This document shows, piece after piece, positions 18,113-60,066 of a DNA stretch of 64,000 nt; within the stretch, counting starts at the first letter, position 1; each line of letters begins with the position of its first letter. The notes beneath the pieces were generated by a model. The model was not told the DNA's origin, did no database searches, and saw only the letters and a program-made list of their open reading frames with translations. Both the position numbers and the translations under genes were made by a program. Where the stretch lies: positions 63,302,001 to 63,366,000 of the forward strand of contig OZ336885.1 in the NCBI GenBank assembly GCA_965287045.1, read 5' to 3'. The stretch is from Carcharhinus amblyrhynchos. Lineage: Eukaryota.

Positions 18113-18139
18113 CTTTCTGTTGCTGTCGCATTTTTACTT
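18113..18139 (-). CDS. 27-nt phase-1 microexon, EVKMRQQQK
   Basis: Minus strand: ctcatctcaattttttcccccag|AAGTAAAAATGCGACAGCAACAGAAAG|gtaaca. Very strong acceptor. Confidence 0.75.
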
Positions 18140-18414
18140 CTGGGGGAAAAAATTGAGATGAGGCCTTGTTCAAGGCAGAAAAGCAATGGAACACGTGGCG
18201 TTTTATTCTGACAATGCAGTGTTGCATTTTAAATTTCACGTTCTGCTATGTTATGCATGCGTTGTTTAAAAAAGTAAATCTAAAAGTACGTATTTTTGTA
18301 CATTCTATCGCATGAAATGACAATAAATGGGATGGAGAGTGTGGTCCTCGTACAAAAACAAACACGTTTCATGGACAGATGCATACATAATAGAACTACG
18401 ACTAACGGTGCTGC

Positions 18415-18490
18415 TGATAATAATAATTAATAAAGGCCATCACCATCATCCATCGTCATCATCGTTACCATCATCATTACGAATATCAAC
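18415..18490. repeat. (TAA)/(CAT)n degenerate microsatellite
   Basis: Tandem trinucleotides. Confidence 0.75.
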
Positions 18491-19154
18491 ATCATATGGT
18501 GACATTATCTCATTACAATTAAATTAGCGGAATCAAGGTAATGTTAATAGATGATCTGATTAAGCAAATGAAAATGTTGCATAATGCATGTTAGTCATTG
18601 TTATACCCTTCAACTAGAGTAACAACATTTGAAGTAGGAAGAGCTGAACAGCGAGTTCCATGGATAAACATTGTTTCATACGGTCACATTACTTACACTA
18701 TCATCTGGACACAGGTCAATTCCTACACGCAGTCCGATTTAAGGGTTATATAGGGTGATGCTGCAGAGGGCAAAATTGTATGTTTCAAAATTTTCTAACG
18801 GATCGGTTGTAAATTGGCCAGAAAATATGCTGGATAATTGAGAGATGTATTGCTGCCATGTTTGTTGAAACAAAAAAAAGCTTTTATTTGAAGTCAGTTT
18901 GCATGACGATGTGGAACAGCCACAGGAATTAAACTTGGTTAAACAAACATATTGTGGTTGGAATAATAAACATCTCTGCTTAAGGTAGGAATGATGCACC
19001 ATACAGGGCACGTCAATGATACGGTTACAAAATGGTGGGAAGTGGCATACCATGACACAGATTTCTACATTATTTCTGTCTTTCTTTTCATACAATGGAT
19101 GGGATAATGCATCATAACTTTAGAAATAACAAAATCATATTATGCCGTTTTTTG

Positions 19155-19710
19155 TTTCTATTCTTTCGTGGGACATGGACATCGCTGGCTGGTCAGCAAT
19201 TATTGCCCATCCCTATTTGCCCTTGGGAACTTGGCGGTGAACTGGCGTCTTGAATTGCTGCACACAGTGTTGTGACATCATGTCAGTTGACGCACACACC
19301 ATTACGGAAGGGATTACAGGATTTTGACCCAGCAGCTTTGAAGCAACGACGACATATATCCAACAAAGATGTTGAATTGCTTATAGCAAGACTTGCAGCT
19401 GGTGATGGTCCCATACATCTATTGTCCTTGTCCTTCAAACTGGAGGTGCTCATTGTTTTGGAAGGTGCTGTCTAAGGATCTTTGGTGTATTGTTTCACTG
19501 CATCAAAGATAATATACACTTCTGCTACTGAGAGTCGGTGGTGGAGGCTGCAGTGCTTGCGGAGATGGTGTAATCAAGAGGGCTACTTTGTCTTGGATAG
19601 TATCAAGTTTCTTGATTTTTTTTTGGAGTTGCGCCCATCATATTCCTGACTTGTGCCTTGTAGATGGTAGATAGGCTTTGTGGATTCTGAAGGTGTTATT
19701 TGCTGCTGTA
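19155..19710 (-). mobile_element. 3' fragment of the same non-CR1 LINE family as 47930-51005
   Basis: Shared tail gctggctggtcagcaattattgcccatccctatttgccc and colinear similarity to about 47940-48500. Confidence 0.8.
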
Positions 19711-20689
19711 GTTGTTTACATGATAGTGTGTTATCAGTTTAAGACGTTTTAGTGCAGGCAAAGAATCAGCAGCTCTTCGAGGCAATTACGTAGGTACTTC
19801 GGGGGAACATCCATTGAATCGAAAAGGGTTTAGGGTCATAAATAATACAAGGCTACCCATCAATGCATTTTAGACATTTTGTCAAATCCAAATTCAATCC
19901 AATAATTCGAACATAGAAACTGAAGCATTTTCTTTGACATTTGCTACCATAATATTCCATTCATATATTGTTGCTAACCAATTTGTGTTGGAAACTGTGA
20001 AATGACAATGTATTTTTTCTTTAACCGCTCTGAATGTCAAATAACGCAATTAAAATAATACATCGTGAATTCCACTTTCTATCCAAAGTTAATGAAAAAA
20101 AATGCATTCTCTCTGGGCAATGAACACGTAAGCAAATCAAAACAAAAAGTTTTTTTTTCAAGTTTTCAAAGATGATGGTTAGATACCAACGAACTACAAA
20201 TAATAAATGGTTCAAGATTGCATTTTGGTGCATACAAATTCAGGAGCAATTTATTAACTGTGTCCGTTGGCATTGTGCAAAATATATTGAAGGGCTAGAC
20301 TTAGCCATACAGATGAGGCATGCAACCAAAAATATACTTCATTTTGGAAAAGAGGTGCATTACTCAGAAATCAACTACGATATTACGAATTTAGTGAGAA
20401 ACATCAGTGTCGCAAAGTTCACAAGTCAAGACGTAATCATAAATAAGGAATGTCTCCGTGATCCCAACAAGTATTACACTTATTCACAAGCGTTGCCGCC
20501 AACTTCTGCAAAATAATTGATCGTATTTCCAAATTTGGAATGATGAGAAAACTGAATGATACCTTCTATAATATTCATTAATGCGCTGCAGTTGTTTTTG
20601 GCAATGGACATATGAATGGCTTTTGGTACTGTGTTTCAGTAACGTCAGATCCAAAAGTTGTGGCTACATGTGATTCAGGGGAGCAAACT

Positions 20690-21665
20690 CGATTGATTGA
20701 GAAGCGTCGGACTGAAGGAAGAATAAATGGGTGGTTCTCTGGCTGACGCAATGCAACTAGTGGTGTGTCACAGTTTTTAGTCCTCGGACCGCAACAATTT
20801 GCAATCCAGAAGCATGTTATTCAAATAGGGACAGATTGTGACATAGCAACATTCGTGGCTGATCGTAACACACATGGGAAAAGAGGGAGAAATGATGTTT
20901 ATCTGCCTGACAGAGATTTTTCTTCGGTATGGGCCAGATGATGGATGAGTCTATCCGTTTGGGTAGAAATAAAAAAAAGAAAAGACAATTTCTTCTCTAA
21001 ATGGAAGTATCATTTAAAATGCCTCTGCACAGCCGAATTTGTGTTTCTTTGCTCATAAACCGCAGAAATTTGGAATGCAGATTCATGTTATGTATACATA
21101 TACATTTATTTGTAAGTGGAATGTTGGAAATTATTGTGATATGACTGGAGAATAAAAGTAGAAAAGTGTTGTTATGACTGCATGGCACATTGGCGAAACT
21201 ACATCTGGAATATTGTGCCAAGTTTCGCTAAAAAAAATTAACCAAGGTTGTGATGGCATTGAACGCAATTCAAACCAGTGTGAGCAGACTCCTGCCTGTC
21301 TTGAAAGAATTGGGATATAAGGAGAGATTAAACCTTTTGACTTGGAGGATGAGAGCAGACCTGATCGTGGTAGAAACATTTTCAGAAGGAGTTGCTAGAA
21401 TGAACAATTAACGAATATTACATTTTATGAATAAATCTTCAGAAAGGGAGTCACAGTACAGTCTCAGAGATGGCAGATTTAAAACTGAGATGAGAAGGAT
21501 CAACATATTACAGAAGGTTGCGAATCTGTGAACTCGCTGCCTCATATTTTAGAGAAGTCTGAATCACTGAAACGTTTAAAAAGGAGACAGGTATATTTCT
21601 AACAAAAAAAATGATTTAAACAGGTGAAATAGGCAGGGGGTTTGGTTTGAGAACAGGGTGGTATC
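20690..21665 (+). mobile_element. Old degenerate CR1 3' half
   Basis: ataaatgggtggttctctggctga...actagtggtgtgtcacag (SGVPQG-like), HLEYC, FKTEMRR. Confidence 0.8.
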
Positions 21666-21790
21666 AGATGTCATTTGACTGCACGGAAAACCGGTTAAAA
21701 ATCGCACATCCGCATACATATTTTCCTATGATCCTATCACAGCACTCAAACTGAAACATCCCTTTATTGCACTGACAATTTCAATTTTTG

Positions 21791-21875
21791 CCCCCACCCC
21801 CCCCCCCCCGCCCCGCAACACACACACAGACACACACACAGACACACACACACACACACCGCACACACATGCACA
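21791..21875. repeat. Poly-C plus (CA)n tract
   Basis: Seen directly in the sequence. Confidence 0.9.
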
Positions 21876-22860
21876 CCACCCTCCTTCTCGGGCGTGATGA
21901 ATGAGTGCAATAAGCAGATTGATTCTTATTTGCATAATACACCATATCAGGAAATCGATCACAAAATACTGGCACAGGTTTTTGCCTCCCGCTAAAACTG
22001 GTATGGCAAATATGGTTTTCTTTACGAATAATTCCACTTCAACTACTTTGCCAATTATGCATTGTATCATGTAAAATTTAGCAGTGAAGTCCTGAGACAT
22101 CGTTGAAGAACAATCACTTATAAAAGTTTGTTTTTCGCAGTCACAAAATTACATGTTTGTGTTTACATAAAATCGTTAGGTTGTCGAATCATTCTATATG
22201 CAAAGGTCACAATATTGAATTGGGACAATTTGCACTAAACAAAATCAAGTGATTAATTTGACCAATCAGCTGAATACCGGCCTGCAAATTGCATTCAGAA
22301 ATGAAAAAAAAACAACCACGAAGTGGAAATTTGTGAAATCATAAGTAAGACAATTAGAAGGCAGATTCCTCTAATGGTATGCAGACTATCATGCTACATC
22401 AGTTATAATGCATAACAACATGCACAGCCCTGTCAAAAAAAAATCTGAACTTACACTTTCTGATTCAACGAAATATTTATGCTTAGGACGTTTCTGGTAA
22501 ATTCACAGGATAATGGGGACAGGAATAGCCAACCAGACCCTTCAGACTTTCCTGCCAATCAGGGGTATTGTGTTTGGTATGTGCCTTAAATGCATACAGC
22601 AATCTTTGAATTCTGTCCATTCCTACCTTTGCTGAACAGAAACAAAAATGATGAATTTAAAAATACCATCTGAACTCAAATGCATAACAACATGTACAAG
22701 ACAAGCCCAGATCGCTGCATATCACCCTTTGGTGCAGAATTCATTCCTTCTGTCTCTTTTGAAGCGTCTGGCCTTATTTCCTTAACCCCATACCCCTCCA
22801 GTTTACAATCTTCGCCCAGTGGATATAAATTACCATTTTAACTCAGCCATTCCTGTTATT

Positions 22861-23453
22861 ACATAAGAACGTAAGAAGATAAGAAATAGGAGCCGGAGTA
22901 GGCCATCTAGCCCTGCGAGCCTGCCCCGCCATTCAATAAGATCATTGCTGATCTGTCGTATTTCAGTTCCACATTTCCGCCCTCTCCCCATAACCCTTAA
23001 TCCCCTTGCCTATCAAAAACCTATCAACCCGCGTCTTAAAAATATTTAGCGAGGCAGCCTCCACCACTTCAACGGGCAGAGAATTCCAGAGATTCACCAC
23101 CCTTTGAGTGAAGAAGTTCCTCCTCAACTCCGTTCTAAACCGCTCCCCCCCCCACCCCCACTTTATCTTGAGGCTGTGCCCTCTAGTCCTACTGTCCTTT
23201 CCGAACGGGAAGAGCCTCTCCATCTGTATCCTACCCATCCCATTCATCATCTTATATGTCTCAATGCGATCTCCCCTCATTCTTCTAAACTCTAACGAGT
23301 ACAAGCCGAGTTTATTCAGCCTCTCCTCATAGTTCAACCCCCTCAACTCCGGTATCGGCCTAGTAAACCTCCTCTGCACTCCGTCCAAGGCCAAAATATC
23401 CTTGCGTAAGTGCTGCGACCAAAACTGCACACAGTACTCCAGCTGCGGCCTCT
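22861..23453 (-). mobile_element. Young 5'-truncated CR1 LINE 3' end
   Basis: Open ORF2 C-terminus RPQLEYCVQFWS...RMRGD.IETYK...FTQRVVNLWNSLP and an 8-mer (TTCTTATG)n-type tail. Closely similar to 55217-55810. Confidence 0.95.
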
Positions 23454-23749
23454 CAGAAACTTCCACCAACGCCACTCTCGACTTCCTAAATGCGGCATAG
23501 AACATGTATAACTTCTGTAATCTGCCCTCCAATGTCCAAAACAGTCCAGTGAACTTGCGTAGATTTCAACGCAAGGGCAATGTAAGCTTTCAATCATTCT
23601 TCCCGGATGTGTTTATAGCAATCTAAATGGGGTTTAACAGATGTGTTGTTTTTTTTTTCAAAATGCAGCAGAACATCTTGATCCTTAAATGCAGATATGA
23701 AGGCCACTCTTTTTTTTTGCTCACTTTAGTGATTTCCGACCTCGTAATG

Positions 23750-24065
23750 CCGTAGATTACATTGCTCCTGCATATTGCAAATGGCTGACTTCCATTCTGA
23801 CGTTGAGTCACTCTGCTTTGAGTTTGCATGTTCTTCACGAACGTTTTCTCAGAGTGTTCTGCTTTTATCCTAAAATGGACAGATCAATCTAAATGTAATT
23901 TTAGTCTCCAGAGTTATGCAAGTTGTATGGATTAGCAATGAAAACTGCCTGGAATTTTTTGGATAGGGCTGAAGGGAGGACACGGACGGCATAGTCTTGA
24001 AGAGTGTTGTGGACTACTCAAAGAGCTGAATAGTTTCATGCAACACTGCAGGGATTGTGTGGTTC
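23750..24065 (+). mobile_element. Decayed HE1-like SINE
   Basis: gagtcactctgctttgagtttgcatgttct core and tail cactgcagggattgtgtggttcc. Confidence 0.7.
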
Positions 24066-24721
24066 CATGTGTCTACATTTTGCTCTACATTTACATTGCA
24101 TGCTAAAGTTTTAAACCCCTCATCACGCAATACTCTTTGGTCAGCTAATGCATTGCAATTCAGAATATCTTATTTTGTCTTTATTTTAGTTATGTCCTTG
24201 GTAGGAGACGTATAGATTACATTTCCCTGAAAATTAAACATGACGTGATAAAAAAGTTTGTGTAAAGCATTTTCTGAACGGTATATTGCACGCTTATTTA
24301 CATTTACAGCTTCTACAACAATATACTCGCACTCCAACGTAGGTAGAAAGTGCAGATTTGTTTGTTATTATATCAGCTGCAAAAGGGAATTGTGAATGTT
24401 GATTTGATAGTCATTAGCACGATTGTTAGGGAGGTTAACGAGAGTAGAGAGTTGAACTCGTTTTGCTGATTGTTTCTGGGATGTGGGTCAAACATTGGAG
24501 AGATGGACGTTTTGTCAATTGGAAATGAAAAACAATTCAGCATGCGGAGATTGGTCTCAATTTGAAAATATCTTCAGGAACAGAACAATTGTTGATATGC
24601 AATGCCGTCATAAATAATTAGGTCGTATGCTACCGCTCGCCCACTGAATGACAACTTATACGCGAGGGTTTTCTTCACTGACATATCGTTTTCCGAACGT
24701 GATAATTCATAGTCTCCTCAC

Positions 24722-24757
24722 CTGAATCGTTTAGTTCTTTATTCAAAGCTGCTATTT
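24722..24757 (-). CDS. 36-nt phase-1 microexon, EIAALNKELNDS (in-frame 30- and 27-nt alternatives)
   Basis: Minus strand: ctttatttattcatcacag|AAATAGCAGCTTTGAATAAAGAACTAAACGATTCAG|gtgagg. Only phase 1 is stop-free. Confidence 0.65.
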
Positions 24758-25044
24758 CTGTGATGAATAAATAAAGTGTTTTGCTCTTCTGTGAAACTGA
24801 ATAACAATAATTTGCGTCACGCCTCCACAAATTTACTCTGTAATTTTAAAGATGTCGCCATGACAGATGAGATACCTAAGTAGACTTCATGTTGGCAAGC
24901 CTTTGTGCACAAAAAAAGGAAAAATCCTGTCACATTCATATCAGAGATATAGAAATATGTTAGCATTAATTACTTACATGGGAACAGCAGTCCTGCCTTC
25001 AAATATAACGATGAGGACATGCTGGCGTTGGACTGGGTAAACAC

Positions 25045-25634
25045 AGTAAGAAGTCTCACAACACCAGGTTAAAGTCCAACAGGTTTATTCGATAGCAAAT
25101 GCCACTAGCTTTCGGAGCGCTGGTCCTTTGTCAGGTGAGTGGGTGATCTGTATGTAAAGCCACAAACTCAATTTACAGAATAATGATTGGAATGCTGGCA
25201 TTTACAGATAATCAAGTCTTAAAGGTACAGGCAATGTGAGTGGAGAGAGCATTAAGCACAGGGTAAAGAGATGTATGATGTCTCCAGACAGGGCAATTAG
25301 CGAAATTTTGCCAATCCAGGCAGATAGTGGAGGATACAGGTAGTGTGACATGACCCCAAGATTCCAGTTGAGGTCGTCCTCATTCGTGCAGAAATTGGTT
25401 CTCAGCCTGTGCTCAGCGACTCTACATTCACATTGTCAGTACGTTTAAGATTTGGTTAGCTGTAAAGTCCGGTATTCAGTCACTAATCTGTAAATTGGGT
25501 TTGCACCTTTATATGCCCTATTTGTGAACAGATCTCCCACTCACCTGACGAAAGAACAGCAGTCCGAAAGCTAGTGATGTTTGCTATCAAATAAACCTGT
25601 TGGCCTTTAACCTGGTGTTGTGACACGTCTTACT
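25045..25634 (-). mobile_element. Penelope-like element remnant with ~115-bp inverted terminal repeats
   Basis: 25045-25160 is the reverse complement of about 25515-25634. The interior on the minus strand encodes a decayed endonuclease C-terminus (VAEHRLRTNFCTNEDDLNWNLGVMSHY). Hammerhead-like CTGANGA..CGAAA motifs lie in the arms. Confidence 0.88.
25538..25576 (+). ncRNA. Degenerate minimal hammerhead ribozyme motif in a Penelope terminal repeat; second copy at 25103-25141 on the minus strand
   Basis: cactcacCTGACGAaagaacagcagtcCGAAAgctagtg; minus copy ctcacCTGACAAaggaccagcgctcCGAAAgctagtg. Confidence 0.6.
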
Positions 25635-26765
25635 TCAAATCTAACCGCATGCATTATGGACATAATGTCTATTTTCATCTCTCCCCAAGATCGTTTGGCG
25701 AAATAAAGATAGATAAATTTCAGATATCATCTGGACCAACGTCAGCAGTTGTGGGCCAATAGCATCTGCACACCCATCGTGGGTAAGGTGGCAGTGACTG
25801 CAGACAAATTGAAAGGGAAGGAAAACCATGGGGTACAATGCTAATTAGACTCACATTGCTATTGTCATTCAACTTTGCACCAGTGAAACGTCACCAGTTG
25901 CCTAAAAGTCAAAAACACTTCAACATCAGTTTAAGGAATCAGGCATGTCAGCATTGTCTCATTGGATGGCCAAAACCCTTATGCAAAATAATGCAGCATA
26001 TTCATGTGCATTCTGAAGAATGCATTTATTTATTCATGCATGTTAATTTTGCAACTGAAAACGCTTGGTTATCAGCAAAGACAACAGCTTAAACTCTAAA
26101 GTCCATGTTAAAAATGTACGTGGATATTTTTCACTTTGTCGCGCAGCTCAATAATTGCAAAGACAGTATATTTCCATGCTGAAATATTGGGACCCATTAC
26201 CCAGCAGCTCGCAACACTACGTGCATCAAAGAGTACATTGAATAGCATCCATAATACCCCTTGATGTTTGGTATGCTACTGATAGAACGATTGGGAGATC
26301 AAATCCTACACCATTGAACAATTATATGGCATGCAGGTGTCAGTCGTTCCTAAAGGATTGTAATGACATCAGAATGTTTTCTTTCTCTTGAGGCAATAAA
26401 CCAATGGAGCGACAGCGTCGCTACTGTGGACAGAGATCACGATCATCATTATTGCTTTCACGTGAAAAAAAAACTGCTTGTTTTTCGTCGGAGTTTTACG
26501 AGTGTCCTAAGGATTAAAGTCTGCTACCCTCAATGATCTGTGATGTTTAGCTGTGCTTGTTAACATGGTGAGAAGTCTTTACGCCAGTCCAACGCCGGCA
26601 TACCCACATCTTGTTAACATGAACAGGTTTGCTCGGTCTGATGCAATCAAATTCATACGTTCTATTGTATCCCCGAACACATTTAATTTCCTCTAATGAT
26701 CCAAGGCAACTGAGGGTTACACAACGCGAATTCAGGAAACACATTTCACTTCATATTATTGTTAC

Positions 26766-26792
26766 CTGAATTCTTTTCGCGTGACTCCTCAT
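26766..26792 (-). CDS. 27-nt phase-1 microexon, DEESREKNS
   Basis: Minus strand: ctttcacgtttaacttatag|ATGAGGAGTCACGCGAAAAGAATTCAG|gtaaca. Confidence 0.7.
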
Positions 26793-28447
26793 CTATAAGT
26801 TAAACGTGAAAGTATTGAACGCACGATTGCAGATCACAACATTGTAATAATAATGCAATGCATCGCTCGTCATAACCAGTTGTTGGGACGAAGCGTCAAA
26901 TTCATGCGTATCTGCATTTTCAGGATTATTAGATGTTCTTTGTCTTTACGAGTGACTTAAACTGAAGGGAGCAAACACTTGTCGGAGGAAAAAAAATCCA
27001 TGCGACCCCATCAATATCGATATCCGCCATCGCTAATGCTGACCAGCAGGAAACTCACTGCGGTGAAGCTCACATCAAATCCCCGAAAAAATTGCCTAAA
27101 ATTTCGATTTGCAGCCGATTACGTAAAAGGATATGTAATGCTCCTCTGCATTAAGATGGTTGTCAGAATGATCAGGACTTGCAATCCAGCGGAAAGATTT
27201 TGAAGCTAAGCAAAGTTCAACTTTTTCGCAGCAAATGGCCAAACAGATGAATATTGTATCCGAATGAATAGACCTTGGTCACAATATCCATGATCCGGCA
27301 AGCGGCTTGTGGTATCAAAGTTGTCAAAATAGGTCCAAGTGTGACAAGTTTCGCTCCTGTATACAGGACGAATTCGATATTTGCTGCTCAGTGAAAGTCG
27401 CACAAGCCATTAAAAACATATCATTGTGCACGTTATACAATGAACTAATGATATGAGATATCAGGACTAATTACATATCTTTTGGAGGATCGTGATCTGG
27501 TGCATCCGCATATAAAATTTGAATTCTCTAACAACTTGATTCACAGCATCCCATGTGAGCGAAATGTAATTTGCACCATTTTTTGTCCTTTCGATGTGTG
27601 AAGACAGAACAACATGTTGTTTGCGATGACGAATGATTTAGCAGTCTGCCTGCAATTAGTCTAAGAAGGATCATGGGCTCCATTTTGAAACGAATTTGAT
27701 AGAAATCAAATTATTCGCATTGCTGTGGTAGATAAGAGAATCTCATACTATTTTGCACTTGAAATCCGGAGTCTTTGGCAGGGATGTCTTTTGAACAAAC
27801 AGTTGGAGCCAATGTTCCTTAGCTGGACATTGAAATTTCGACCAATTTGTTTACTCCAAAGTTATACCCTGGTACACTCATTTCCAAGATGGACAGAGAA
27901 CAAACGCAAGTAAAAGTTCAATAGCTGTATTAATAATAACACTATTAACCCTTAAAATACCCGTATAATACAAAAAGCTACGCCAGATTCACGAATACTG
28001 CCCACGGAGATAGTTTGGTGAAACTGCATGCTCGAATTTCTGAGTCCCTTTAGTCCGTCGTCATGAAGGAGAGTGATGACGGGACCTTCTTCATTCCTTT
28101 CTTCTCTGCTCAGTCTTCCAGATGGACAAGTTCGCCTCCCTCGTCGAGTCTTCACTGTTGTTGTGTCTGAAATGTATATCTTTACCCTCCTACTTGCCTG
28201 CATTTCCAGAAACTTCTCTGGTTTCAGACCAGTCAGATCTTGGGAAGGTGGTCCCAGGATCCCGTCAGTTTCTTGATGTCTGCTTGACATTAAGGGCACC
28301 GGGACTTTCCCTCCAAGTTTCCATCTTCATGTTGTTGCTTACATGTAACCTGTTGCCAGATAAGCGTACGCAGGAACTCTAGGTGACAGAAAGTCTAGCC
28401 CCTATCTGGATTTCTAACAATGGGCCAGTGCATTCCAATGGGAATGC

Positions 28448-33239: not shown

Positions 33240-33425
33240 GATCATCACAAACGCATCTAACCCGCACGCCCTTCGGAATGTGGGATGAAACTTCACCAAC
33301 CACAGGAAACCAATGCAAAAACGGGGAAATGCGCAAACTACGCGCACAAAGTGATCAAGCCCTGATTCGAACCTCAGCGACTGTGAAGCAGCAATGCTGA
33401 TCACTTGGCACAGTGCTTCCCCACT
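33240..33425 (-). mobile_element. HE1-like SINE, 5' half
   Basis: Reverse complement of the tRNA head (gattcgaacc...gctgatcacttggcac) and of the V core. Confidence 0.8.
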
Positions 33426-47600: not shown

Positions 47601-47929
47601 TTCCCGTGCAGATTTTGTACCATGTCATAAAATGAAGCTCCAATGCCAAAACGTGCTGGAATGGTAACGAGGGCAACATTATCTTCATCAAACATCCACA
47701 TCGTTTTGACAATTTTGAGAGTGAAAATTATTGACGAAACATCTGAAAATCATTTAGACTGGGGTTCTGGAATATTGAACTCCAGTTGATTTTGTTTTTT
47801 ATCTTGAAATAATAAACAGGAATGCCATTGAGCTAGTGATGACACCAAAGATTGAAGACGTGTCCCACTGATTCCCAATTCTTCACATGTTCTAGCCTCT
47901 CTCGATGTCACAGTCAGCCTTTTTTTTGT

Positions 47930-50900
47930 TCATTTATTTGTGCGACATCAGCGTCGCTGGTTTGCAAAATTTATTTTCCATCCCTAAGTTCCCTAGATAA
48001 GGTGATGGTGAGCTTCCTTCTTGAGTCGCTGCAGTCCAAATTCTGAGGTTTGACCAAAAATGCCGTAAGAGAGGGATTTCCAAGATTTAACCCAGCGACT
48101 GCGAAGGATCATCAATATATTTCCAAGTCAGAATGCTATGGAGCTTGGAGTGGAACTTGCAGTGGTGGATTTTCCCATGTATCTGTTGCTCTTATCCTTC
48201 TAGATGGAAATGGGCGTGAGGTTGGAATGTTCTGCCGAAGGATATTTGGTGAATTGATGTAGTGCATCTTGTGAGCAACACACACTGCTGCTAATGAGCA
48301 TCAGTGTTGGATGATTGATTATTTGGAAATGGAGTGCCAATCAAGCAGGCTGCATTGTCCTAGATTGTGTCAAGCTGCTTGTTTTTTTGTAGGAGCTTCA
48401 CCCACCCAGGCACTTGGGAAGGATTCCATCACACGCCTGAACTGTGCCTTGCAGAGGATGGACAGAATCTGGGGAGTCAGGAGGCAAGTTACTCTCTGTT
48501 CCTAGCATCTGACCTGCTCTTGTAGCCACTGTGTCTATGTGATGTGCCTAATTGAGTTTCTTGTTAATGGTAACCCTTAGGGAGTTGACAGTGGGGGAAT
48601 CAGTGATGGTTACACCATTGAATGATAAGACGTGTTGTTAGAGTGTTTCATACTGGTGATGGTCATTGTCTGGCATGTGTGTGGCGCAAATGTTATTTGC
48701 CACTTACCAGCACAAGCCTGAATATGTTCTTGACCTTGCTGCATTCGAACTTGGGTTGTTCAGTATCTGCGGAGTTGCGAGTGGTGCTGAAATTTGCAGT
48801 GATCTGTGAATATCCTACTTCTGAATTTATGAAGTTCATTGAACGAACAGCTCAGGGACTCCTGCAGAAATATCCTAGAGCTGAAATGATTGATGTTCCA
48901 CCAGCGTAACCATCTTCCCATGTGACAGGTATGACACCAGACAACAGAGGGCTTGCCCGAGAAACATATTGATTCTAGTTTTGCAATGACTCCTTGATGC
49001 CACACTCAGTTGAATGCGGCCTTGGTGATCTTAAGGGCTGTCATTCTCACATCCCCACTGGAATTCAGCACCTTAGTACATGTTTCAGCAAAGGCCGTAG
49101 TGAGGTGACAAGCTGAATGGTCCTCGCAAAACCCGAATTGGGCGTCAGTGAGCAGTTTAATGCTGAGCAGGTGCTGCGTGAGAGCACTGCTAATGACTCC
49201 AGCCAACACATAATGTTTACTGGTGATCAAGAGTAGACTGATTGGGTGCTAACAGGCCGGGCTGGATTTGCCCTGCTTTTTTTTTTGAACAGGTCGTAGC
49301 TTGGTAAGTGTTCCACGTTGTTGGTAGACTTCAATTCTGTATCTCTATTGGAAGAACTTGGCAAGGTGAGCTGCAAGTTTGGAGCACTAGAGGAGGCCGA
49401 GATGTATCATCCACTCGACACTTCAAGCTGAAGGTTGCTGCGAATACTTCAACTTTATCTTTTACACTGGGATCCCAACACAATTCACCATCGCCCCAAT
49501 GGCACGACAGACCCAGCAGAATTTGTGGAATAGTGCTATTAAAAGGGATCTTCCATCATGAAGGATGGGGATATTTGTGGAGCTTCCTCCTGCAGTGAGT
49601 AGTTTAATTTTCTAGCCGTTGGATTTGGAAGGACGGCAAAGCTTAAAGCTGATATTTTATTTGTGGGATCATTTTGGTCTTATTATTACTTGTCGATTTT
49701 GCTGTTTGACATGCAAGCAGCCCTGTTTGCTAGCTTCATCAGATTGACATAGCATGTTTAGATTGCCTACTGCTCCTCCTGGCATGCCTTTCTGGACTCT
49801 CCATTGAACCAGGGTTGATCCCCTGGCTTGATGGTAATGGTGAGTGGGGCATATGCCAGGCCAGATGTTGCAGATTGTGCTGGAATACTGTACCGCTGCT
49901 GTTGATGGCACACAGCGACTCACGGTTGCCCAGTCTTGAGTTGCTAGATGTCCCACTTAGCACAATGATAGTGGCATGCAAGAAAATGGAATTTGTTCAT
50001 ATTGTGAAGATGGGCCGTCGTCTGCGCAGAGACTGTGCAATGGTCTCTCTCAATGATGCTGTCATGGACAGATTCATGTGCAGCTGGTTGTTTGGTAAGA
50101 ATGAGGCCAAATGTTATCTACTCTTGTTGGTTCCTTCAGCACCTTCTGCAGGCCCACTTTCGCATTTATATCCTCCAAGCCCCGACCAGCTGCCGAGCCA
50201 CGCTTTGTGGTGGACATTGGAATGCCTCACCCATTGTGATTTTTACAACCGTGCCAAGCTTAATGCTTCCTCCGAGTGTTATTCAACATAGAGGGACACG
50301 TTTTTATGCACCCGAAGTATGGAGGCATGTGATAACTATGAAGGGGTTTCCTTGTTCGTGTGCAAACTGAAACCACGAGACTTAATGGGGTCCGCAGTCA
50401 ATGTTAAGGACCCCAAGGGAAACTCACGACTGATTGTATGTCACCATTCCTCCAGTTCTGCTGGGCCTGTCGTGACATGGAGTGGAACATATCCAGGGAT
50501 GGCAATGCTGGTATCTGGAGTGTTATCTGCAAGGTATGATCCAGTGAGAATGGTCACGTCAAGCTGCTGCTTGATTAGACTCTGAAGCAGCTCTCCCAAT
50601 TTTGGCACTCGCGCCAATATGCTAGTAAGGATGACTTTGCAGCGTCGACAGGCCAGTCTGTTTTGCTCTTGTCTTTTCTGCTGCCTAGATTGATAACAGG
50701 TGGTGGGGGTCCAGTTTTATTTCTTTGTTGTTTTTTTTTCTACCGATTGTTCCAACCCAGTGACTTGGTCGGTCACGTCAAATGGCAGTTAAGTATCAAC
50801 AAGTTGCGGTGGCTCTAGAGTCACACGTAGGCCAACCCAGGTAAGGACAAACGATTTCCTTCCCTAAATGACATTGTTGACCCATGTTTACAGATTTTTT

Positions 50901-51005
50901 AAAATTCAAATTCCACCATCTGCCATGGCTGGATTTGAACCCCGGTTCCCAGACATTGTCTGGATTAGTAGTGTGAATGTTAATGCCACTAGACCATCGT
51001 CTCAT
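47930..51005 (-). mobile_element. Near full-length degenerate non-CR1 LINE (APE endonuclease + RT, no ORF1 visible) with a tRNA-like 5' head
   Basis: LLTDAQFGF and TAL..KAAFN.VWHQG RT motifs; endonuclease start PKLGEL...LIKQQLDVTILTGSYL...IAIPGY; A-box-like tggtctagtgg and B-box-like ggttcaaatcc at about 50930-51000. Confidence 0.85.
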
Positions 51006-52199
51006 CATCGTTTTTCAAGGACAGGAAATAAAGTCAACACAATTTAGGAATTCAACTATTTTGTATGCATTCATCATTACATTTCGACTTGACAGAACAA
51101 ACACAGCTGCAGTGAGCCGTATTTTGTCCAAGTAAGCCACTTGATAGTTCTGTCTGACTCGCTACGTCTCTCTCAACGATCACACAACTTAGCTACTGAG
51201 GTAGATTGAATGCAACTGTTTTTAATGCATGGACGGACCGTTCACGTCATTCATTCAAAACATTGTGGTGAAAAAAAAACCTGTTACAATGGCAATTTCA
51301 AAATCAAGTCTTCCGGAAACGGTTACGGATTTGGATTTTATCAAAGCTGGTTATTCAAAATTAAAGTGAAAGCGATTTGAAATGTCCATTTTTGGATCCA
51401 TATGCGTCCAACTAGGTCATGTAATGGGCCGTTCTCTGATTGCAGTTGTTCATCCCGTCGAATCAACACTGGCAGTTCAAACAATATAGTAACAGAAAGT
51501 AAAAAACAGAAACATTTTTTTTGATGAGGGGATCCCTGCTCAATGGAGTACCTCCATAAATGTCATAAAATTTGCAGAATGTGATGTGTTTTGTTTGTCC
51601 ACTGCCAAATGCGACATTTTCTGTCTTTTATTGTTATTGTATCACACTGTAAATTGTGTAACAATTTTTTTCATGAAGGCGGTATTGCTTTTCAAACCAA
51701 CGAATATCTTGATCAAAATAAATCGGAAGATCATTTGTCAACACATTATTGTCTGCAGAAAGCTGGTGGAAACTTCAGAATGATCAAATGCGACACAACT
51801 AATAGCTAAAATGTTCGGCCTGTTTGGAGTGACACAGAGATTAAGCAAATGATAAACGTTGTTGTTTTTTCCAACTGCAAATGACTGAAGCAGATTGTTT
51901 TTTTTTGTTTTGATATTTTACTGACATCCCAGCAGATTTCGGAATAATTAAATTCTTCAAACGGTCTCTTTCCTATTTTCAGGTTTCCCTCCAAAAAGGC
52001 TAGCTCAAGTGATTTCATGGCCATTACAATAAAATCCAAATTGTTCCCAGTATCGGAGAAATAAAAGTTCTACATGATTAGAAACTTAGCAGAATTGATA
52101 TTTTGCCGTCAAGGAGGAAATTGCATGACAATTAAAATCCATAAATGAGGAGTGTCATATATTTATCTCTTTTAAGCAGAGAATAATGAAAGCCAGTAC

Positions 52200-52226
52200 C
52201 TTTTTCCTTTCCACCCAGTTGATATT
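52200..52226 (-). CDS. 27-nt phase-1 microexon, EYQLGGKEK
   Basis: Minus strand: attattttttttcttaatag|AATATCAACTGGGTGGAAAGGAAAAAG|gtactg. Strong polypyrimidine tract; same length and phase as its neighbours. Confidence 0.72.
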
Positions 52227-52932
52227 CTATTAAGAAAAAAAATAATTAAACTAATGATGTGTGGTATGAGAAGTCAGGCTAAAAGACAATTCGGCGCAAA
52301 CGAAATATGCATTCAAATATTTAGAAAGACGTATCAATGTGCGCAGTTTTGTAATTAAGATGGTCCCTACACACAAATCTTGGATCTATCTGCGCTGTGT
52401 TGCTTTTGAGGCTCATCGGCTTTTTTTGTGATCCAGATATTTACTTAGAATTTCAACTGTGTTCCTTCCTTACGTTGAAAAACGATATATCTTGAAGAGA
52501 AAAATGACACAACCAATCACATCCGACACATCCGTAAGCTCGATGTATTCAAAAGCTACAGCAAATATTATGAGTAATATCGACGTTAAAAAAAAACATG
52601 TTTTTTTCTTGAGAGGACTTTCCATCCAAACGAATGTTGAACATTTTGTCATAATTTTGATCTGTGGATAAAAATGCAATTCTCCTTGAAATAGCTGCAA
52701 TAAAAAATATAAGATAGTGGTAACATACAAATTATATGATCATCTGCCACACATTATGTCAATGCAGACTATCAGCAAGAACTATGTAGTTAATCTGATG
52801 TTTCATATGTTGTTTTGTTTTTAGTCCACAACGATTATGTTCTTATTCTTAAGCTCATATCAACGGTACAACAGCGGAAATCAAACTGCGCGTTGAATTT
52901 TTGAGGAAAGTCTGTCTGATTTTTGTGTGTGT

Positions 52933-52970
52933 TGGGGGGGGGGGGGGGGTGCGGGGGGGGGGAGGGGGGG
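52933..52970. repeat. Poly-G tract
   Basis: Interrupted G homopolymer. Confidence 0.9.
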
Positions 52971-55216
52971 AGCCGTCAGTGTATCGGTTTGCTAGATCCG
53001 GGAATGGATCATAATGTAATGTTTGTTAATGTTAAAAAAAAACTGCCATATTGAATTGTTTGGTTATGGAAAACATTAACTGCACACGCCGGACCGTTGG
53101 ACATTAAGAACATGGAGCAGAAGATTACTTAATTGAGCAGAGCGGCCATCAAACGTTTCTTGGGATGAAAAATGCTCCGATGTAAACCGCCATACATATG
53201 GACGACATTCTCCAGCTTCAAAATGGCATTCCATAAAGACTAAACGCGTTGGAATACATTTCATTGTAACAACGAAACGGATATTGCGTGTGAAGATAAA
53301 TGGGCTGCACTGTCGAGACATTAACCCAGGGACCACGGATCTCCAACCCCGCACCGCCCCAACCCCGGCTTGCTCGAATGTACTGTTCAATAATTCTAGA
53401 CTCAGATGTCCTTGTCAGCGTTGCACAAACTATTCTCACTGGGCGACTTTGCAAAATAAATTACTTTAAAATTACTCTGGAATATAATCCTGAATGTTCA
53501 GCATAACGCAATACTTGTTCAGCTTTTATGTTCTTGTCTGTCACATTACATTTAAGCCTTCTGTTACGTTCAAGTGAGCAAAATGACATTTTGTCATCTC
53601 AAATCAATTGCAGTTGCCGTTTAACCCTGCTCACAGCTTTGGGGCAGTTCATGGCTTTAAACTAGTTTGCAACTGAAGGCAATAACTTGTATTTCTGAAT
53701 TGCAAATAAACTTCCTGATGCACATTACAAAAAACATGTGTATTGCAGTTATTTTTGCTCTGTCTGGTGTTCTGGGCGTCATGAGCGAGGCCACCATTTC
53801 CACACCTGTAATTGTACATTCAGTGAATGCTTTGCTAGATCATTTCATAGAACAGCGAAGATTGTTTTGTTAAGGGAATTAAATGAAGTCTAAACAAAGC
53901 AAATGTGTCTGAGTTATTTACCGCTGTGACATTTTGGAGCTAGACAGGATGCAAGGGCAAGGTCTAATATTTCCATTGTCACTCCTATTGTGGCGAATCT
54001 GATTTTCCATTTATTTGGCGGATAATTGCACTTAATTTCCACGGGCGGCATCAACGTGATTTCCACATATTTCTACCCAAAGTATGAACCTGGGATTCTT
54101 CCTTAGGAAACATTACCTTAACCTACCCCACCCCCCTCAATCGCACACCTTTCCCGACCAGAGTCTCACTGCGTCCTGCATATCTTCCACGTTGATTGAG
54201 CTCCGGCTTTCCTTCACAATAGGTTCATCATTTCATAATTGGTTTGTTCTTGGGGATTTGACACAAAAAGTACAAGGTCCAATTTGATCTTTGCGCCAAT
54301 CGTGACAGAGGCTAAGAGCTCTTGGGAACATGTGCAACTGAATGCGTCATGCATTGTTTTAAGAACACAACAATTTCCAGCCATTTCTCATGACGCATTT
54401 CCACAGTACGTGTATAATTGCATGGAGTACATTTCGGGAAGTGTACTCGGCCAACTACTTTTGCCATTTTTCACTAGACTGGCATTGTTGGAAAACGTAT
54501 ATTGGCCTTGATTATGTTTCAGCTCGTGGACAACTGACAAATGTGAAATAGAGCTGCTGGCAGTTATTTGTTTTTCGATAGTCAACATGGATTTTCAACA
54601 TATTGTGCCACGCAAACACAAAAACATTTTTGGTAATTTTATTGTGTGATGAAAAGTTGCTGTTTCTGCCTTGCTGGAAATAACATATTACAAACGTAAA
54701 CATGACACAAGGCGCACCTAGTTGCTTTAATGATTCTTGGCAATCAAACAGTTCTGTAAAAATTGAAAATCATTGAACGTATGTTAGTATCATTTTGAAT
54801 ATGTCGGTCTCTCGAAATGAATGCCCCAAATTTAACTGAATTATTACACAGTAAAAAAAAAATCGACACCCGGGCTTGCAATCCATTGATACCTCGTCAT
54901 ATATGGTAACACAATTTAATTATGCAACAACATCAAATCATTTTCCCTACATTCTTATTGCGCTCGCTTTTCTTGGGATGAGCTTGTGCTATCCATTTCC
55001 ATTAACGACAGAACGTTTTCCTCAGCGCAATACAGGATATATTTCGCAGCAATGTTACAAATGAAATTTGAAATGCTGAAATGAAACATGTTTTGCAATC
55101 ATTTCTGCAATACCAGGAAAATAAATTAACATTTGACTTTGAAAGTTAATTTAAAAGTTGTGCCAAATGAGAAGACACTGCAAATTGATTCGCAGGCGAA
55201 TGAACTGCCAGCGGAA

Positions 55217-56461
55217 ATAAGAACATAAGAACATAAGAAATAGGAGCAGGAGTAGGCCATCTAGCCCTTCGAGCCTGCTCCGCCATTCAATAAGATCATG
55301 GCTGATCTGTCGTGGCTCAGTTCCACATTACCGCCCTCTCCCCATAACCCTTAATCCCCTCTCTTATCAAAAACACATCAACCCGCGTCTTAAAAATATT
55401 TAGCGAGGCAACCTCCACCACTTCAATGGGCAGAGAATTCCAGAGATTCACCACCCTTTGAGTGAAGAAGTTCTTCCTCAACTCCGCTCTAAACCGCGCC
55501 CTCCCCCCCCCCCCTTTATCTTGAGGCTGTGCCCCCTAGTCCTACTGTCCTTTCTGAGCGGGAAGAGTCTCTCCATCTCTATCCTATCCATCCCGTTCAT
55601 CATCTTATACGTCTCAATGAGATCTCCCCTCATTCTTCTAAACTCTAACGAGTACAAGACTAGTTTATTCAGCCTCTCCTCATAGCTCAACCCCCTCAAC
55701 TCCGGCATCAGCTGAGTTAACCTCCTCTGCACTCCCTCCAAGGCCAAAATATCCTTGCGTAAGTACGGCGCCCAAAACTGCACACAGTACTCCAGCTGCG
55801 ACCTCACCAATGCCCTATACAGCCGCAGCAAGACCTCCCTACTTTTATATTCAATCCCCCTCGCTATGAAGGCCAGCATCCCATTTGTCTTCCTGGCCAC
55901 CTGCTGCACCTGCAAGCTGGGTTTTTGCGACTCATGCACAAGGACCCCGAGGTCCCCCTGCACCTTCGCCTGCTGCAGTTTTTCTCCACGTAAGTAATAA
56001 TCCTTCCTACCATTATTCCTACCAAAGTGGACCACCTCGCAACTGCCAACATTAAATTCCATTTGCCAGTTCCTGGCTCATTCGCCCAGCCTATCTAGAT
56101 CCTTCTGCAGATTCTCCACACCCTCCGCACAATTTGCCGTTCCACCAGTCTTGGTGCCATCAGCACATTTCGACACCATACACTCGGTTCCCTCCTCCAG
56201 ATCATCTATGTAAGCCGTAAATAGCTGAAGCCCCAGCACCGACCCCTGGGGCACTCCACTAGTCACCAACCGCCAATCCGAATAGCACCCAATGACCCCC
56301 ACTCTCTGCCTACTATTTGACGACCAATCCTCTATCCAAGCTAACACCCTACCCCCAACTCCATGTCCCCTAACCTTCTGCAATAACCTCTTGTGGGGTA
56401 CCTTGTCAAACGCCTTCTGAAAATCAAGAAAGACCACATCCACCGGCTCTCTTCTATCCAC
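55217..56461 (-). mobile_element. Young CR1 LINE, 3' segment
   Basis: [47 protein letters not shown]; (TTCTTATG)n tail. Confidence 0.97.
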
Positions 56462-57460
56462 CTTTGTTTGAAAAGAGGGGAGTACGGTAGGATGAGAGTA
56501 GAATTTGGCGAATGTGGACTGGGGGAGCGCGTTGGAAGGCAGGTCTGCTGAGGAGCAGTGGAGGATCTTTAAGGAGATCTTTCTTGGTGCTCAGCAGAAA
56601 TTTATTCCGATGCTCAAAAGGGACTGCATGAGGAGAAGTAATAAGCCGTGGATAACGAAGGAGGTGAAGGAAAGTGTTAAACTAAAAGCGGAGGCGTTTA
56701 GAGTAGCTAAGAGTAGTGGGCGAGAAGAGGTTTGGGAGAGGTTTAAATTTCAACAAGGATTGACAAATAAGTTGATAAAGAAGGGTAGGAGAAACTATGA
56801 AGCTGGGCTTGCGCTTAATATAAAAAAGGATAGCAAGAGTTTTTATAAATATATAAAAAGGAAGACGCTGGCTAGGGTGAACGTTGGACCCTTAGAGGAT
56901 GAGAAGGGGGACTTAGTGGTAGGGGATGGGGATATGGCTGAGGTCTCGAATTACTTTTTTGTTTCGGTCTTCACGGAGGAGTACGTGAATAATTTGTCGG
57001 GTGTTAGAGATGGAAAGGTGGTAGGACTGGAGGGTCTCAATGACATTATTGTTACTAGAGAGGCGGTGCTCAATAGGTTGGAGGGGCTGATTATGGAATA
57101 GTCCCCAGCACCGGATGGAATGCATCCGAGGGTTCTGAAAGAAATGGCGGAGGTGATAGTGGATGCCTTGGTGGTTATTTTCCAGACGTCACTGTATTCC
57201 GGGGAAGTGCCGGAAGATTGGAAAACGGCTAATGTTACGCCGTTGTTTAAGAAGGGTGCCAGGCAAAAGGCAGGGTATTATAGGCCAGTTAGTTTAACGT
57301 CTGTTGTCGGTAAAATGTTAGAATCCGTCATCAAGGAGGAAATAGCGAGGCATCTTGAGGGGAATTGCTTGATCGAGCAGACGCAGCACGGTTTCGTTAA
57401 AGGGAAGTCGTGTCTGACAAATTTACTGGAGTTCTATGAGGATGTGTCTGGGGCGGTGGT
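56462..57460 (+). mobile_element. Inverted upstream segment of the same CR1
   Basis: KPWIT, SKSFYKYIK, HPRVLKE, PEDWKTANVTPLFKKG, YRPVSLTSVVGKMLE and QHGFVKGKSCLTNLLEFYEDVSGAV. Confidence 0.95.
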
Positions 57461-58544
57461 CTAAAATAACTTTGATTGCTCGTGTTTAATTAAATTTGCC
57501 CCAGGCTGGCTATATCTGATTGGCTGAGGAATTGAGCTGAAGAATGCACATGCGTCCTGAAAGTTGCGTTTTGCAACCTCATATATAGCAATTTGCCTCA
57601 GATTTACCAGCGGAAACAGTTGAGAAGCTACAGAATGTTTGTTCAGCAACGTCCATCAGATGTGACCCTATTGCTTCCTAGAAACTGGCAACAGTTCTGT
57701 TTAATTAAATCAAAGAATTAAACTAATCTTGTATACTTCATAGAACTCATTCGATTATCTTATCTCTTGACAAAAATGTATTTTACAGTTCAGAAACACA
57801 CTGATGCACAAATCATTCCCCTGTGTTATAACTTCATTCCTCCGGAAATTTGTCTGCAATTGCACAGTTAGGCTGAAAAATTGCACTTCTGGCGTTTTCA
57901 TATTTGCACACATCAAGAAATTGAAATCGATTTTCTTTTGTGCAACCATGTATATGTTTTCAATAATAATGCTTCGTAAGTTGCCGATCTACTTGATGTA
58001 AAATATTCATTTGTTTGTAATATACATATATCTGGAATTCAATTCAATGTGTTAACTAAAACAATTAGTGGACTTCTGTTAAGATTGGGTCCTAAACCCT
58101 TACTTCAGAAGTGTTGGGCAGCTGCATTTCATTACTGATTTAAACTTTTAATTTGTCTGGGTTTAAACTAAGTTATAGAGAGACAGTTGAAAGAATCATG
58201 AGCGATTATAAATACAGTTCTACCAGTGCATACATCAAGGTAATGTATACATCAAGATGACAATCAGCAGACCATTTCAATTCGTGTTTCAAACTTAAAT
58301 TCGAATTTAATTCGAGCATGGAAAATAACCGTTGGATCCAACTGGTACGTTTTTGTGTAATTTGCATGACTTTTATGATTGTAAACATCAAATACTGAAT
58401 TGTCCACGTGATGTTCAAGCGCAGACAACATCAGAAATTATTGTCCAGTCACAAATTGTCATATGCATTATATTCCAACCGCTGTTACTGAACTGCTTTG
58501 GCAGAACAAATGTAAGTGTTTTTACGATGAGCTACAGTTGGAAC

Positions 58545-59040
58545 ATTTACGACATGAGCAAGGAAAGAAGAACAAGTAAAACACAGACAGGCAGGCCCTG
58601 GGCCCTCCAAGCACGTGCCAATCATGATGCTCGTACTAAACCTGAAAAAAAAAACTCTTTCCGTACTCGACATGTAACACTTTATTCTGTCCCTATCCAT
58701 ACAGTCATCCAGATGTTACTTAAATGCGACAGAATGCTGTCATTCAAAACCTCATTTGGCAAAACGTTCTGGGCACCCACCGCGCTCTCCGTAAAAAAAA
58801 ACGAAGTCCCCCGCACATTTCCCTTAATACTTGAACTCTCACGCTGAAACTGTGCATCCTTCTAATTGACAATTTCACCCATTGAAAAAAAAAGTCTGTC
58901 CACACTGTTACCAAATGTTACATGCCATTCTGGTATCATGGCGGGCAGAACTGCATACAATACGCAAAATATGGCTTCACCAAGTTGTTATACAGCTGCA
59001 ACATGACTTCCTAACTCTGGCACGCAATGTGAAGCATTTC
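58545..59040 (-). mobile_element. Decayed CR1 3' end with internal deletion
   Basis: Reverse-complement remnants caggccctgggccctccaagc, gcacccaccgcgctctccgtaaaaaa and cagaactgcatacaatac. Confidence 0.75.
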
Positions 59041-60039
59041 AAAACCATGACGAAATCTGATTCTTAGATTAAATCGTTGGTGGTAGTTTCCGTGTGCCTC
59101 CAACGTTTGTTCTTCCGTTTGTTAATGTTGTCGTTTGAGAACATGTTGGACAAGGATACTTAAAGGGAATGTTTATGGGACTTTGTACATGAGAGATAGT
59201 ACTGACATGGGTGGCTGGACTGGGTGTATAACGGAGCAATGTTATACTGGGCACGTTTATATTTGAGCCCTCGATTATGCGCAAATAAAGCCGTCTGAAT
59301 TGACTTCGAAATCGCCCCCTCCTGAACCGACACATGTCGAGGAAGTTGAAAAATATTTTTCTCACTGTTCCCGATTCTATTACATATTATCCAACGGTAG
59401 CCGGAGCTATGGTGAGTAGGCCGCAAGGTAATTGCAAATGAGATAACTTGAACTGATAACCATTACTTCCTTGTGACTACTGGAATTATACTTATTTTCA
59501 AAAGCAATTGCGTGTTGCAGAAGGTATTGTTTGTTTTAGAAATGAACAAAAAAAGGTATGTCAGTTGCAAGCCAAAATCCCAATTTCGTCTTTTGCAGAA
59601 TATGCATTTGATCAGGCACATCTTAAGCACGAATGCAACTCTTAACGTTGGCTTGGAATGCGTGCAATGCTCAACATCATTTCCACTGCCCGGAATATAT
59701 TTCATTTTTTATCAATGTCTCACTCCATTTGACGTAACCTTTGCGGCAGTTAAGCCTGCATTCTCACCAAACCATTCGCCGCTGTTTAAAATTTGATAAT
59801 GCATATGCCACTTTGATCGTTTTTTTTTATTTCCATGCAGAACATTTCTTTTCTTCAGTATTATGTTAAGGGGAACCTAATTTGTGATACTACCTGCTAA
59901 CAACAACTTTATTTTCGGCCAAAACTTTTGAAAGTTTTGCCCTATCTTTTGAAAGATACTGCAACAAGTGCATTCTTTGGCAAATACGCAAACAACGATC
60001 ACGTGCTCAATTTGCATTGAATAGGCAAAAAAACGCTAC

Positions 60040-60066
60040 CTGTCTTTTTATCCTTTAGTTTGTTTT
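60040..60066 (-). CDS. 27-nt phase-1 microexon, (E)NKLKDKKT, of an unidentified K/E/D-rich protein
   Basis: Minus strand: ttttgacttctaaacag|AAAACAAACTAAAGGATAAAAAGACAG|gtagcg. Only phase 1 is stop-free. Confidence 0.72.

Follow-up and report, generated by a model that had tools for sequence, protein, structure and literature searches.

Butyrophilins consist of IgV and IgC domains, a transmembrane (TM) segment, a short heptad region and a B30.2 domain (PMC8813856, PMC5938342). Chicken BG proteins have an IgV domain, a TM segment and a long coiled-coil tail of 21-nucleotide (nt) heptad exons, with 27-38 repeats whose number varies between genes (PMC5938342). BG tails undergo alternative splicing. 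For these proteins, 'orphan' B30.2 partners have been suggested (PMC8813856, PMC5938342). Butyrophilin genes have been reported from cartilaginous fishes, and the accessible part of that report does not mention a form with a microexon-encoded rod (PMC12841164). A further system, similar in gene design, is that of the Schistosoma micro-exon genes (MEGs). These genes have mostly short exons in multiples of 3 nt, long introns, 10-20 exons and a signal peptide, and are difficult to annotate (bioRxiv 10.1101/2023.06.21.545858). Here we describe a predicted gene of the shark Carcharhinus amblyrhynchos, called gene A, whose middle portion occupies the window, i.e., the whole stretch of 64,000 nt that was analysed. 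The window is C16 (contig OZ336885.1) 63,302,001-63,366,000, within a 2.92-Gb genome. Gene A lies on the minus strand (1..64000) and continues past both window ends. Positions follow the window's own numbering, and negative values lie before base 1 of the window.

We consider it probable that gene A is a gene of ~494 kb whose approximately 100 predicted phase-1 microexons encode a rod of ~1,000 residues followed by a B30.2 domain, and that the product is a soluble, non-transmembrane ligand binder of the butyrophilin/TRIM type. The predicted architecture itself, i.e., a microexon array, a coiled-coil rod and a B30.2 end, seems close to certain.

Gene A resembles a free-standing, hugely extended butyrophilin or BG tail with its own B30.2 domain and, judged by its predicted exons, fails membership of the butyrophilins, BG proteins and TRIM proteins. 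Like butyrophilins, it has a heptad region in small exons and then a C-terminal B30.2, and the segment preceding B30.2 in a relative from Narcine aligns with the corresponding segment of BTN3A1. However, butyrophilins have only a few heptads, whereas gene A has about 145 heptads' worth of rod, covers ~490 kb and has no Ig or TM exon that we could find. As in chicken BG, a long coiled coil is divided among many small exons of variable number. By contrast, each BG exon has 21 nt and supplies one heptad, and BG has IgV and TM segments but no B30.2; gene A has ~100 exons of 36, 27 or 15 nt, with three heptads per 36+27 pair, and a B30.2, and no IgV or TM was found. TRIM proteins with PRY-SPRY (TRIM7, TRIM21, TRIM39) similarly combine a soluble coiled coil with B30.2, but no RING or B-box was found in gene A, and its coiled coil is built from microexons and is several times the usual TRIM length. 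The likeness to Schistosoma MEGs is in gene design only, in that most coding sequence (in gene A, ~3,050 of ~3,570 predicted coding nt) lies in symmetric microexons; no homology was seen, nor was any sought. Unlike in MEGs, the exon order of gene A is tied to coiled-coil register and a folded B30.2 ends the protein. Scans for a signal peptide found none for gene A, while the model of a skate relative has an ambiguous hydrophobic start. We found no description of this family in the accessible portions of the open-licence PMC and bioRxiv literature on shark or elasmobranch B30.2, SPRY, coiled-coil or microexon genes.

Extent of the array and its terminal exon

The minus-strand array spans +340,913 to -147,520 (488.6 kb). 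At a score of at least 14.5, we catalogued 102 exons, of which 59 are upstream of the window, 13 within it and 30 downstream. The most 5′ microexon (C16:63,642,887-63,642,913) bears an in-frame ATG-Gly start. With one candidate dropped, 101 exons (1,010 codons) are read without a stop. Exons scoring at least 16 number 98 and comprise 50 of 27 nt, 41 of 36 nt and seven of 15 nt; additionally, there is one strong 21-nt exon downstream of the window, and perhaps two of 18 nt. The median intron is 3.3 kb, the microexons make up 0.6% of the span, and the junction residue is Glu or Asp in 77 of 97 cases. The array exons would presumably be spliced into one mRNA.

The terminal exon lies at -152,632..-153,152 (C16:63,148,848-63,149,368), 153 kb downstream of the window, is in phase 1 and has 172 codons plus a stop. 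It is called SPRY by Pfam (E = 9e-11) and is placed among chordate PRY-SPRY clusters by the ESM Atlas (score 0.95). With a family profile, the best Protein Data Bank (PDB) match for the B30.2 is that of BTN3A1 (E = 1e-32), and the best PDB matches overall are BTN3A1 and BTN3A3. Upstream of the array, a gap of 92 kb leads to a tandem paralogue, B, whose B30.2 exon lies at 433,740-434,257. This exon sets the upstream limit of gene A, which measures ~494 kb between its first microexon and its stop.

Controls against chance

We scored exons with a model that combines acceptor and donor signals with residue profiles for each exon class; its training set was limited to 87 exons from the paralogues B, C, E and F. 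Within the window, matches scoring at least 18 number 13 on the minus strand, zero on the plus strand and zero in each of 40 shuffles, a comparison that had been suggested by an earlier reading of the window from its letters (hereafter, the sequence-only reading). In the 488.6-kb array, there are 102, 87 and 75 sense matches at scores of at least 15, 18 and 20, versus 3, 1 and 0 antisense. The sense strand of the upstream 92-kb gap has no match of at least 15, and neither gap flanking the array has a match of at least 20.

Candidates were also picked by splice signals alone, as pairs of 9-60 nt and without a coding filter. A length of 15, 27 or 36 nt is found in 64 of the 134 on the sense strand, versus 3 of the 59 on the antisense strand (p = 9e-10). 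Phase 1 is open in 62 of those 64 sense candidates, compared with 26 and 34 for the other frames (p = 5e-9). These enrichments in strand, length and frame bear out the central claim of the sequence-only reading, that the region hides a coding gene of symmetric phase-1 microexons.

Predicted coiled-coil rod

The exon-encoded part is rich in Lys (19%), Glu (17%) and Leu (14%), is almost free of Pro (0.2%) and has a net charge of -17. In 43 36-nt exons, the hydrophobic fraction is 0.77, 0.91, 0.88 and 0.51 at positions 1, 4, 8 and 11, and at most 0.16 elsewhere. The common class of 27-nt exons has Leu at position 3 in 29 of 47 cases and Lys at position 6 in 30 of 47, and in a less common 27-nt class the core is formed by positions 1, 4 and 8. 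In the resulting core layout, 36-nt exons supply a1-d4-a8-d11, and the common 27-nt class supplies a15 and a Lys-rich d18. One 36+27-nt pair thus has 21 residues, i.e., three heptads, while combinations of 27+27 and 36+15 nt would introduce stutters and stammers.

The power at a period of 3.5 residues is 31.6, versus 14.1±2.4 with exon order shuffled (maximum 21.3 of 300) and 7.9 with residues shuffled. Because the signal falls when exons are reordered, exon order preserves the heptad register. Alternations between 36 and 27 nt are also more frequent than expected (58 versus 44.6, p = 0.003). The three heptads per pair and the order-dependent period together lead us to predict a coiled coil of ~1,000 residues plus B30.2. 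With a coiled-coil rise of 0.1485 nm per residue, the predicted rod would be ~150 nm long if it is dimeric and straight, and it presumably does form a dimer. For a 295-aa skate relative, AlphaFold predicts a pair of long helices and a B30.2 sandwich (pLDDT 69), and the fold matches of this model include TRIM7 and BTN3 structures.

Selection

Gene A and paralogue B share 32 colinear exon pairs (chain score 38.7, versus 6.6±1.4 with shuffled order). Within the pairs, identity is 0.69 at the first codon position, 0.76 at the second and 0.54 at the third; the pairs were picked by similarity, such that only the contrast between codon positions is informative. A second comparison used run X1, whose DNA-like contigs are ~97% identical. 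The ~520-nt B30.2 exon has one difference from X1, while ~580 nt of flanks have 15 (p = 6e-4), with a depth of 4.4 over most of the exon. Among 40 of 375 differences listed, both that fall in microexons are synonymous. Gene A thus bears signs of purifying selection, as far as can be read from these comparisons. The lone coding difference in the B30.2 exon (contig depth 4.4) is an Asp in gene A, at a site where X1 and almost the entire family have Asn.

Microexons in the window

The sequence-only reading had listed seven short blocks on the minus strand, and all are present at their claimed coordinates with YAG before and GT after. Each begins with A and finishes in AG. Their sizes were also given correctly, with five of 27 nt, one of 15 nt and one of 36 nt, as was the observation that three of them (60040, 44592, 24722) are free of stops in phase 1 alone. 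None of the 13 window exons overlaps a tandem repeat or any sequence that recurs within the 1.22 Mb compared, consistent with the statement that the blocks are outside repeats. The description "mostly 27 nt" fits these blocks but masks the alternation of 36 and 27 nt in the gene as a whole. The 62-aa peptide obtained by joining the blocks is incomplete, because a search by generic splice scores brought up six further exons of the same kind in the window, four of them within the span of the seven blocks.

In the order of transcription, the window begins with two of the added exons, namely a 15-nt exon at 62054..62068 (family score 24.1) and a 36-nt exon with Cys at heptad position d at 61192..61227 (28.4). 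These are followed by the 27-nt exon at 60040..60066 (27.7), another added 36-nt exon with Cys at d at 54718..54753 (30.6), and the 27-nt exon at 52200..52226 (21.3), which has a synonymous difference in X1 at 52216. Next are an added 27-nt exon of the second class (core positions 1, 4 and 8) at 45938..45964 (20.0) and the 27-nt exon at 44592..44618 (31.8), which has a synonymous difference in X1 at 44608. A weaker internal acceptor in the latter gives an in-frame 15-nt form, 44592-44606 on the minus strand (score 17.8), and is a possible alternative 3′ splice site. An added 36-nt exon at 41165..41200 (28.8), the 15-nt exon at 33876..33890 (30.2) and an added 27-nt exon at 32365..32391 (32.4) come next. 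The last three are a 27-nt exon at 26766..26792 (24.7), the 36-nt exon at 24722..24757 (41.3), which shares 78% identity with its colinear counterpart in paralogue B, and the 27-nt exon at 18113..18139 (21.3). All 13 are phase-1 exons on the minus strand.

The introns of the window hold high-copy repeats at 55209-57459, 22860-23452, 28461-29014, 25010-25634 and 41578-42377. The element at 55-57 kb contains broken reverse-transcriptase frames resembling those of long interspersed nuclear elements (LINEs).

Paralogues and relatives

There are six close B30.2 exons on C16, at 60.45, 61.08, 63.07, 63.15 (gene A), 63.74 and 66.44 Mb, and the five others are 38-50% identical to that of gene A. One further, more distant family member is located among the B30.2 clusters of C9 (106.38 Mb, 32% identical to A), and the remaining 109 of 116 genome matches are 26-35% identical. 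Paralogues B, C, E and F carry microexon arrays of the same type; for D and G, 10 kb each was read.

The array of paralogue B (minus strand) covers at least 850 kb (C16 63.74-64.59+ Mb) and that of paralogue C (plus strand) at least 820 kb (C16 62.245-63.07 Mb). Both were partly sampled, in stretches that end short of the 5′ ends. Where read continuously, B and C have 18-20 exons per 100 kb, a density from which we estimate ~170 exons for the longer paralogues. Paralogue B has additional 18-nt exons near 64.554-64.558 Mb, and two inverted copies of a 27-nt B exon lie inside B on the opposite (+) strand at C16 ~63.771 Mb. Paralogue C has additional exons of 42 and 45 nt.

Paralogue E has, at C16 61.13-61.19 Mb, a recent tandem duplication of 27-30 kb with a block of at least eight exons; the copies are 88-93% identical overall and 94-100% in the exons. 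Paralogue C holds a block repeated three times. Together, these duplications imply that the rod grows by tandem duplication of multi-exon blocks. One copy of the duplicated block in E has Pro replacing a core Leu.

A profile search (E at most 1e-30) retained six of 872 candidates, from Scyliorhinus torazame, Chiloscyllium punctatum (two) and Narcine bancroftii, and two Logan proteins, one of which clusters with a Leucoraja protein. For the bamboo shark and S. torazame, the entries are fragments with B30.2 alone. A profile search for longer proteins retained two of 8000, from Scyliorhinus canicula and, far more weakly, a salmon TRIM39; a single-sequence search for longer homologues found none among 399 candidates at E of at most 1e-20. 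Close relatives are thus named from five cartilaginous fishes (sharks, skates or rays), and the gene family is likely specific to sharks and rays, although word-based searches cannot exclude distant members elsewhere.

A tree with one TRIM outgroup only places gene A together with B, D and Chiloscyllium GCC29436.1 (support 80/83). The C9 member pairs with S. canicula 'TRIM39-like' models (100/100), which are without RING and B-box. For three longer models of relatives, Pfam gives only SPRY/PRY, while the salmon TRIM39, used as a control, shows RING and B-box. RefSeq labels relatives 'TRIM39-like', 'TRIM69-like' or 'A33-like'.

N-terminus and predicted location

The ATG of the first microexon is in a strong context and encodes M-G-x-x-x-S, which fits the N-myristoylation consensus (Met-Gly start, Ser/Thr at position 6). 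An in-frame M-G occurs in two of 318 catalogued exons of 15, 27 or 36 nt, one being the first exon of gene A. An M-G exon of paralogue C was rejected as the start of that gene, as it is internal and in three tandem copies. A DNA search with the first exon of gene A matched only itself.

We scanned the 92-kb upstream gap for other N-terminal parts. Pfam searches of 118 sense-strand open reading frames of at least 72 aa found no Ig, RING or B-box; the only matches were LINE reverse transcriptase/endonuclease and the SPRY of B, which served as positive controls, and one sub-threshold match. Pattern and hydropathy scans of the gap were likewise negative for Ig, RING, B-box and TM exons and yielded no convincing signal exon. 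Judged by this 92-kb gap, gene A is therefore neither a classical butyrophilin nor a TRIM gene.

These features would fit a product that is cytosolic and attached through N-myristoylation of its M-G-x-x-x-S start. The rod would then hold B30.2 heads at a set distance from this N-terminal anchor. We lean, if only slightly, toward such a cytosolic tether.

Weighing the interpretation

Several observations weigh against this picture of a soluble, cytosolic, B30.2-headed rod. Every exon is a prediction and, by the antisense rate, about three of the 102 may be false. One low-scoring 36-nt candidate created a stop at a junction and was dropped. Contigs of X1 cover introns evenly, and exon junctions are absent among the joints listed, so this run served only as related DNA. 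In the duplicated exons of paralogue E, six of eight changed codons are non-synonymous; these exons are nonetheless better kept than their surroundings. An immune-type recognition role is suggested by the B30.2 domains of butyrophilins and TRIM proteins, and both ligand and role are drawn from this analogy only. Regarding the N-terminus, the upstream scans may have overlooked short exons for a signal or an anchor if their splice sites are weak. The M-G start is unconfirmed in paralogues, given that the M-G exon of C is internal and that in B and C the stretches read stop short of the 5′ end, and the Narcine and catshark models do not begin with M-G. Lastly, the first 17 residues of the skate model XP_055510696.1 form a hydrophobic stretch (9-residue hydropathy 3.31), and Cys is found at position 4 (d) in 14 of 43 36-nt exons, compared with at most three at any other position.

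The last two features favour an extracellular, disulfide-linked rod. The same gene might thus encode a secreted protein with an undetected short signal exon, a disulfide-stapled rod and B30.2 heads in plasma, mucus or matrix; snake vespryns are a precedent for secreted B30.2 proteins. However, upstream of the first microexon we found no convincing signal exon, and a scan of 1.22 Mb with the 17 N-terminal residues of the skate model gave no plausible exon. The skate start may be a signal peptide, but could equally be a translated polypyrimidine tract from intron read-through, as in several intron read-ins in our own scans. Moreover, a hydrophobic start is absent from the Narcine and catshark models. 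We regard secretion as an unlikely variant, albeit the one to be taken most seriously.

The array could instead be an alternative 3′ extension of paralogue B, whose B30.2 exon would be skippable, giving a longer rod with another head. Strand and phase are identical throughout, and the 92-kb gap has no recognisable coding 5′ exon. Yet the 3′ half of gene A is colinear with the 3′ array of B, as expected of a tandem duplicate of a whole gene, and the first microexon has its own well-placed ATG. This arrangement therefore seems improbable.

It is less probable still that gene A encodes a true butyrophilin or BG-like membrane protein with missed Ig and TM exons, the array being an extreme cytoplasmic tail. 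Butyrophilins and BG were the second lead of the sequence-only reading and are indeed the correct neighbourhood. Phase-1 heptad exons, a single B30.2 exon, the BTN3A1-like last segment in a relative and the BTN3 structures as best PDB matches all fit such a protein. On the other hand, the scans of the bounded 92-kb gap found no Ig or TM exon, and the models of relatives have none either, their maximum 19-residue hydropathy being 0.02-1.48. Additionally, none of the 35 genome matches to the butyrophilin-type IgC family PF22705 is on C16. Most are on C53, C46 and C12, with two on C9. On C53, C46 and C9, these matches co-occur with ordinary B30.2 clusters, and such places likely hold the conventional butyrophilin-like genes. 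B30.2 clusters also occur on C73 and C41, there with no IgC match. In a genome-wide search for V-set domains, antigen-receptor-like clusters saturated the results (150 of 1793 scored), and it is uninformative on C16.

The first lead of the sequence-only reading, a divergent triadin-like gene, shares tiny symmetric exons rich in Lys and Glu with gene A but can be set aside, given the terminal B30.2/SPRY exon, a Leu-rich heptad coiled coil in place of an unstructured KEKE region, the lack of a TM exon, and PF05279 (the triadin/ASPH N-terminal family), which matches only on C8 and C7 and not on C16. Chance pseudo-exons or a dead gene are scarcely credible in light of the strand, length and frame enrichment, the relaxed third codon position and the conserved B30.2.

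Exon skipping

The sequence-only reading proposed that combinatorial exon skipping could tune the length and charge of the protein. Only 135 of 5,050 possible exon-to-exon joins create a stop. Random removal of 20 exons lowers the 3.5-residue signal from 32.0 to 24.3±3.8, and removal of ten 36+27 pairs lowers it to 29.5±2.1. Skipping is thus frame-safe, but not register-safe. In relatives, RefSeq isoforms of 289 and 280 aa in Narcine and of 460 and 451 aa in S. canicula (predicted models) differ within each pair by one 9-residue segment. The proposal is therefore supported only in part, in that isoforms drop single segments, but random skipping of single exons would erode the heptad register, which skipping of 36+27 pairs largely keeps.

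More speculatively, sharks and rays might have a family of giant 'molecular ruler' B30.2 sensors. The genes would measure from 0.5 to more than 0.85 Mb and the rods from 150 to more than 250 nm, with a three-letter exon code (36, 27 and 15 nt) setting the register and combinatorial splicing yielding a repertoire of rods that differ in length and kinking, all beneath a small set of fixed B30.2 heads. Such a protein would possibly be a free-standing coiled-coil/B30.2 partner, as proposed for chicken BG tails. We consider this idea unlikely. If true, it would be a vertebrate counterpart of the diversification of micro-exon genes.

Conclusions

Gene A is ordinary in its parts, unusual in its scale and exon code, and poorly represented in the annotation of its relatives. 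It is part of a cluster that extends over several megabases and comprises very large, apparently functional genes. In public annotation, the relatives of these genes appear as B30.2-only fragments or TRIM ligases. The cluster provides a test bed for the splicing of 100 consecutive microexons across introns with a median of 3 kb, and for the growth of a coiled coil by exon duplication that keeps the register. The heptad-exon design of butyrophilins and BG is here extended to ~100 predicted exons per gene, with a different exon code and no Ig or membrane parts. This family bears on the origin of B30.2 receptors, butyrophilin tails and BG tails in early jawed vertebrates.

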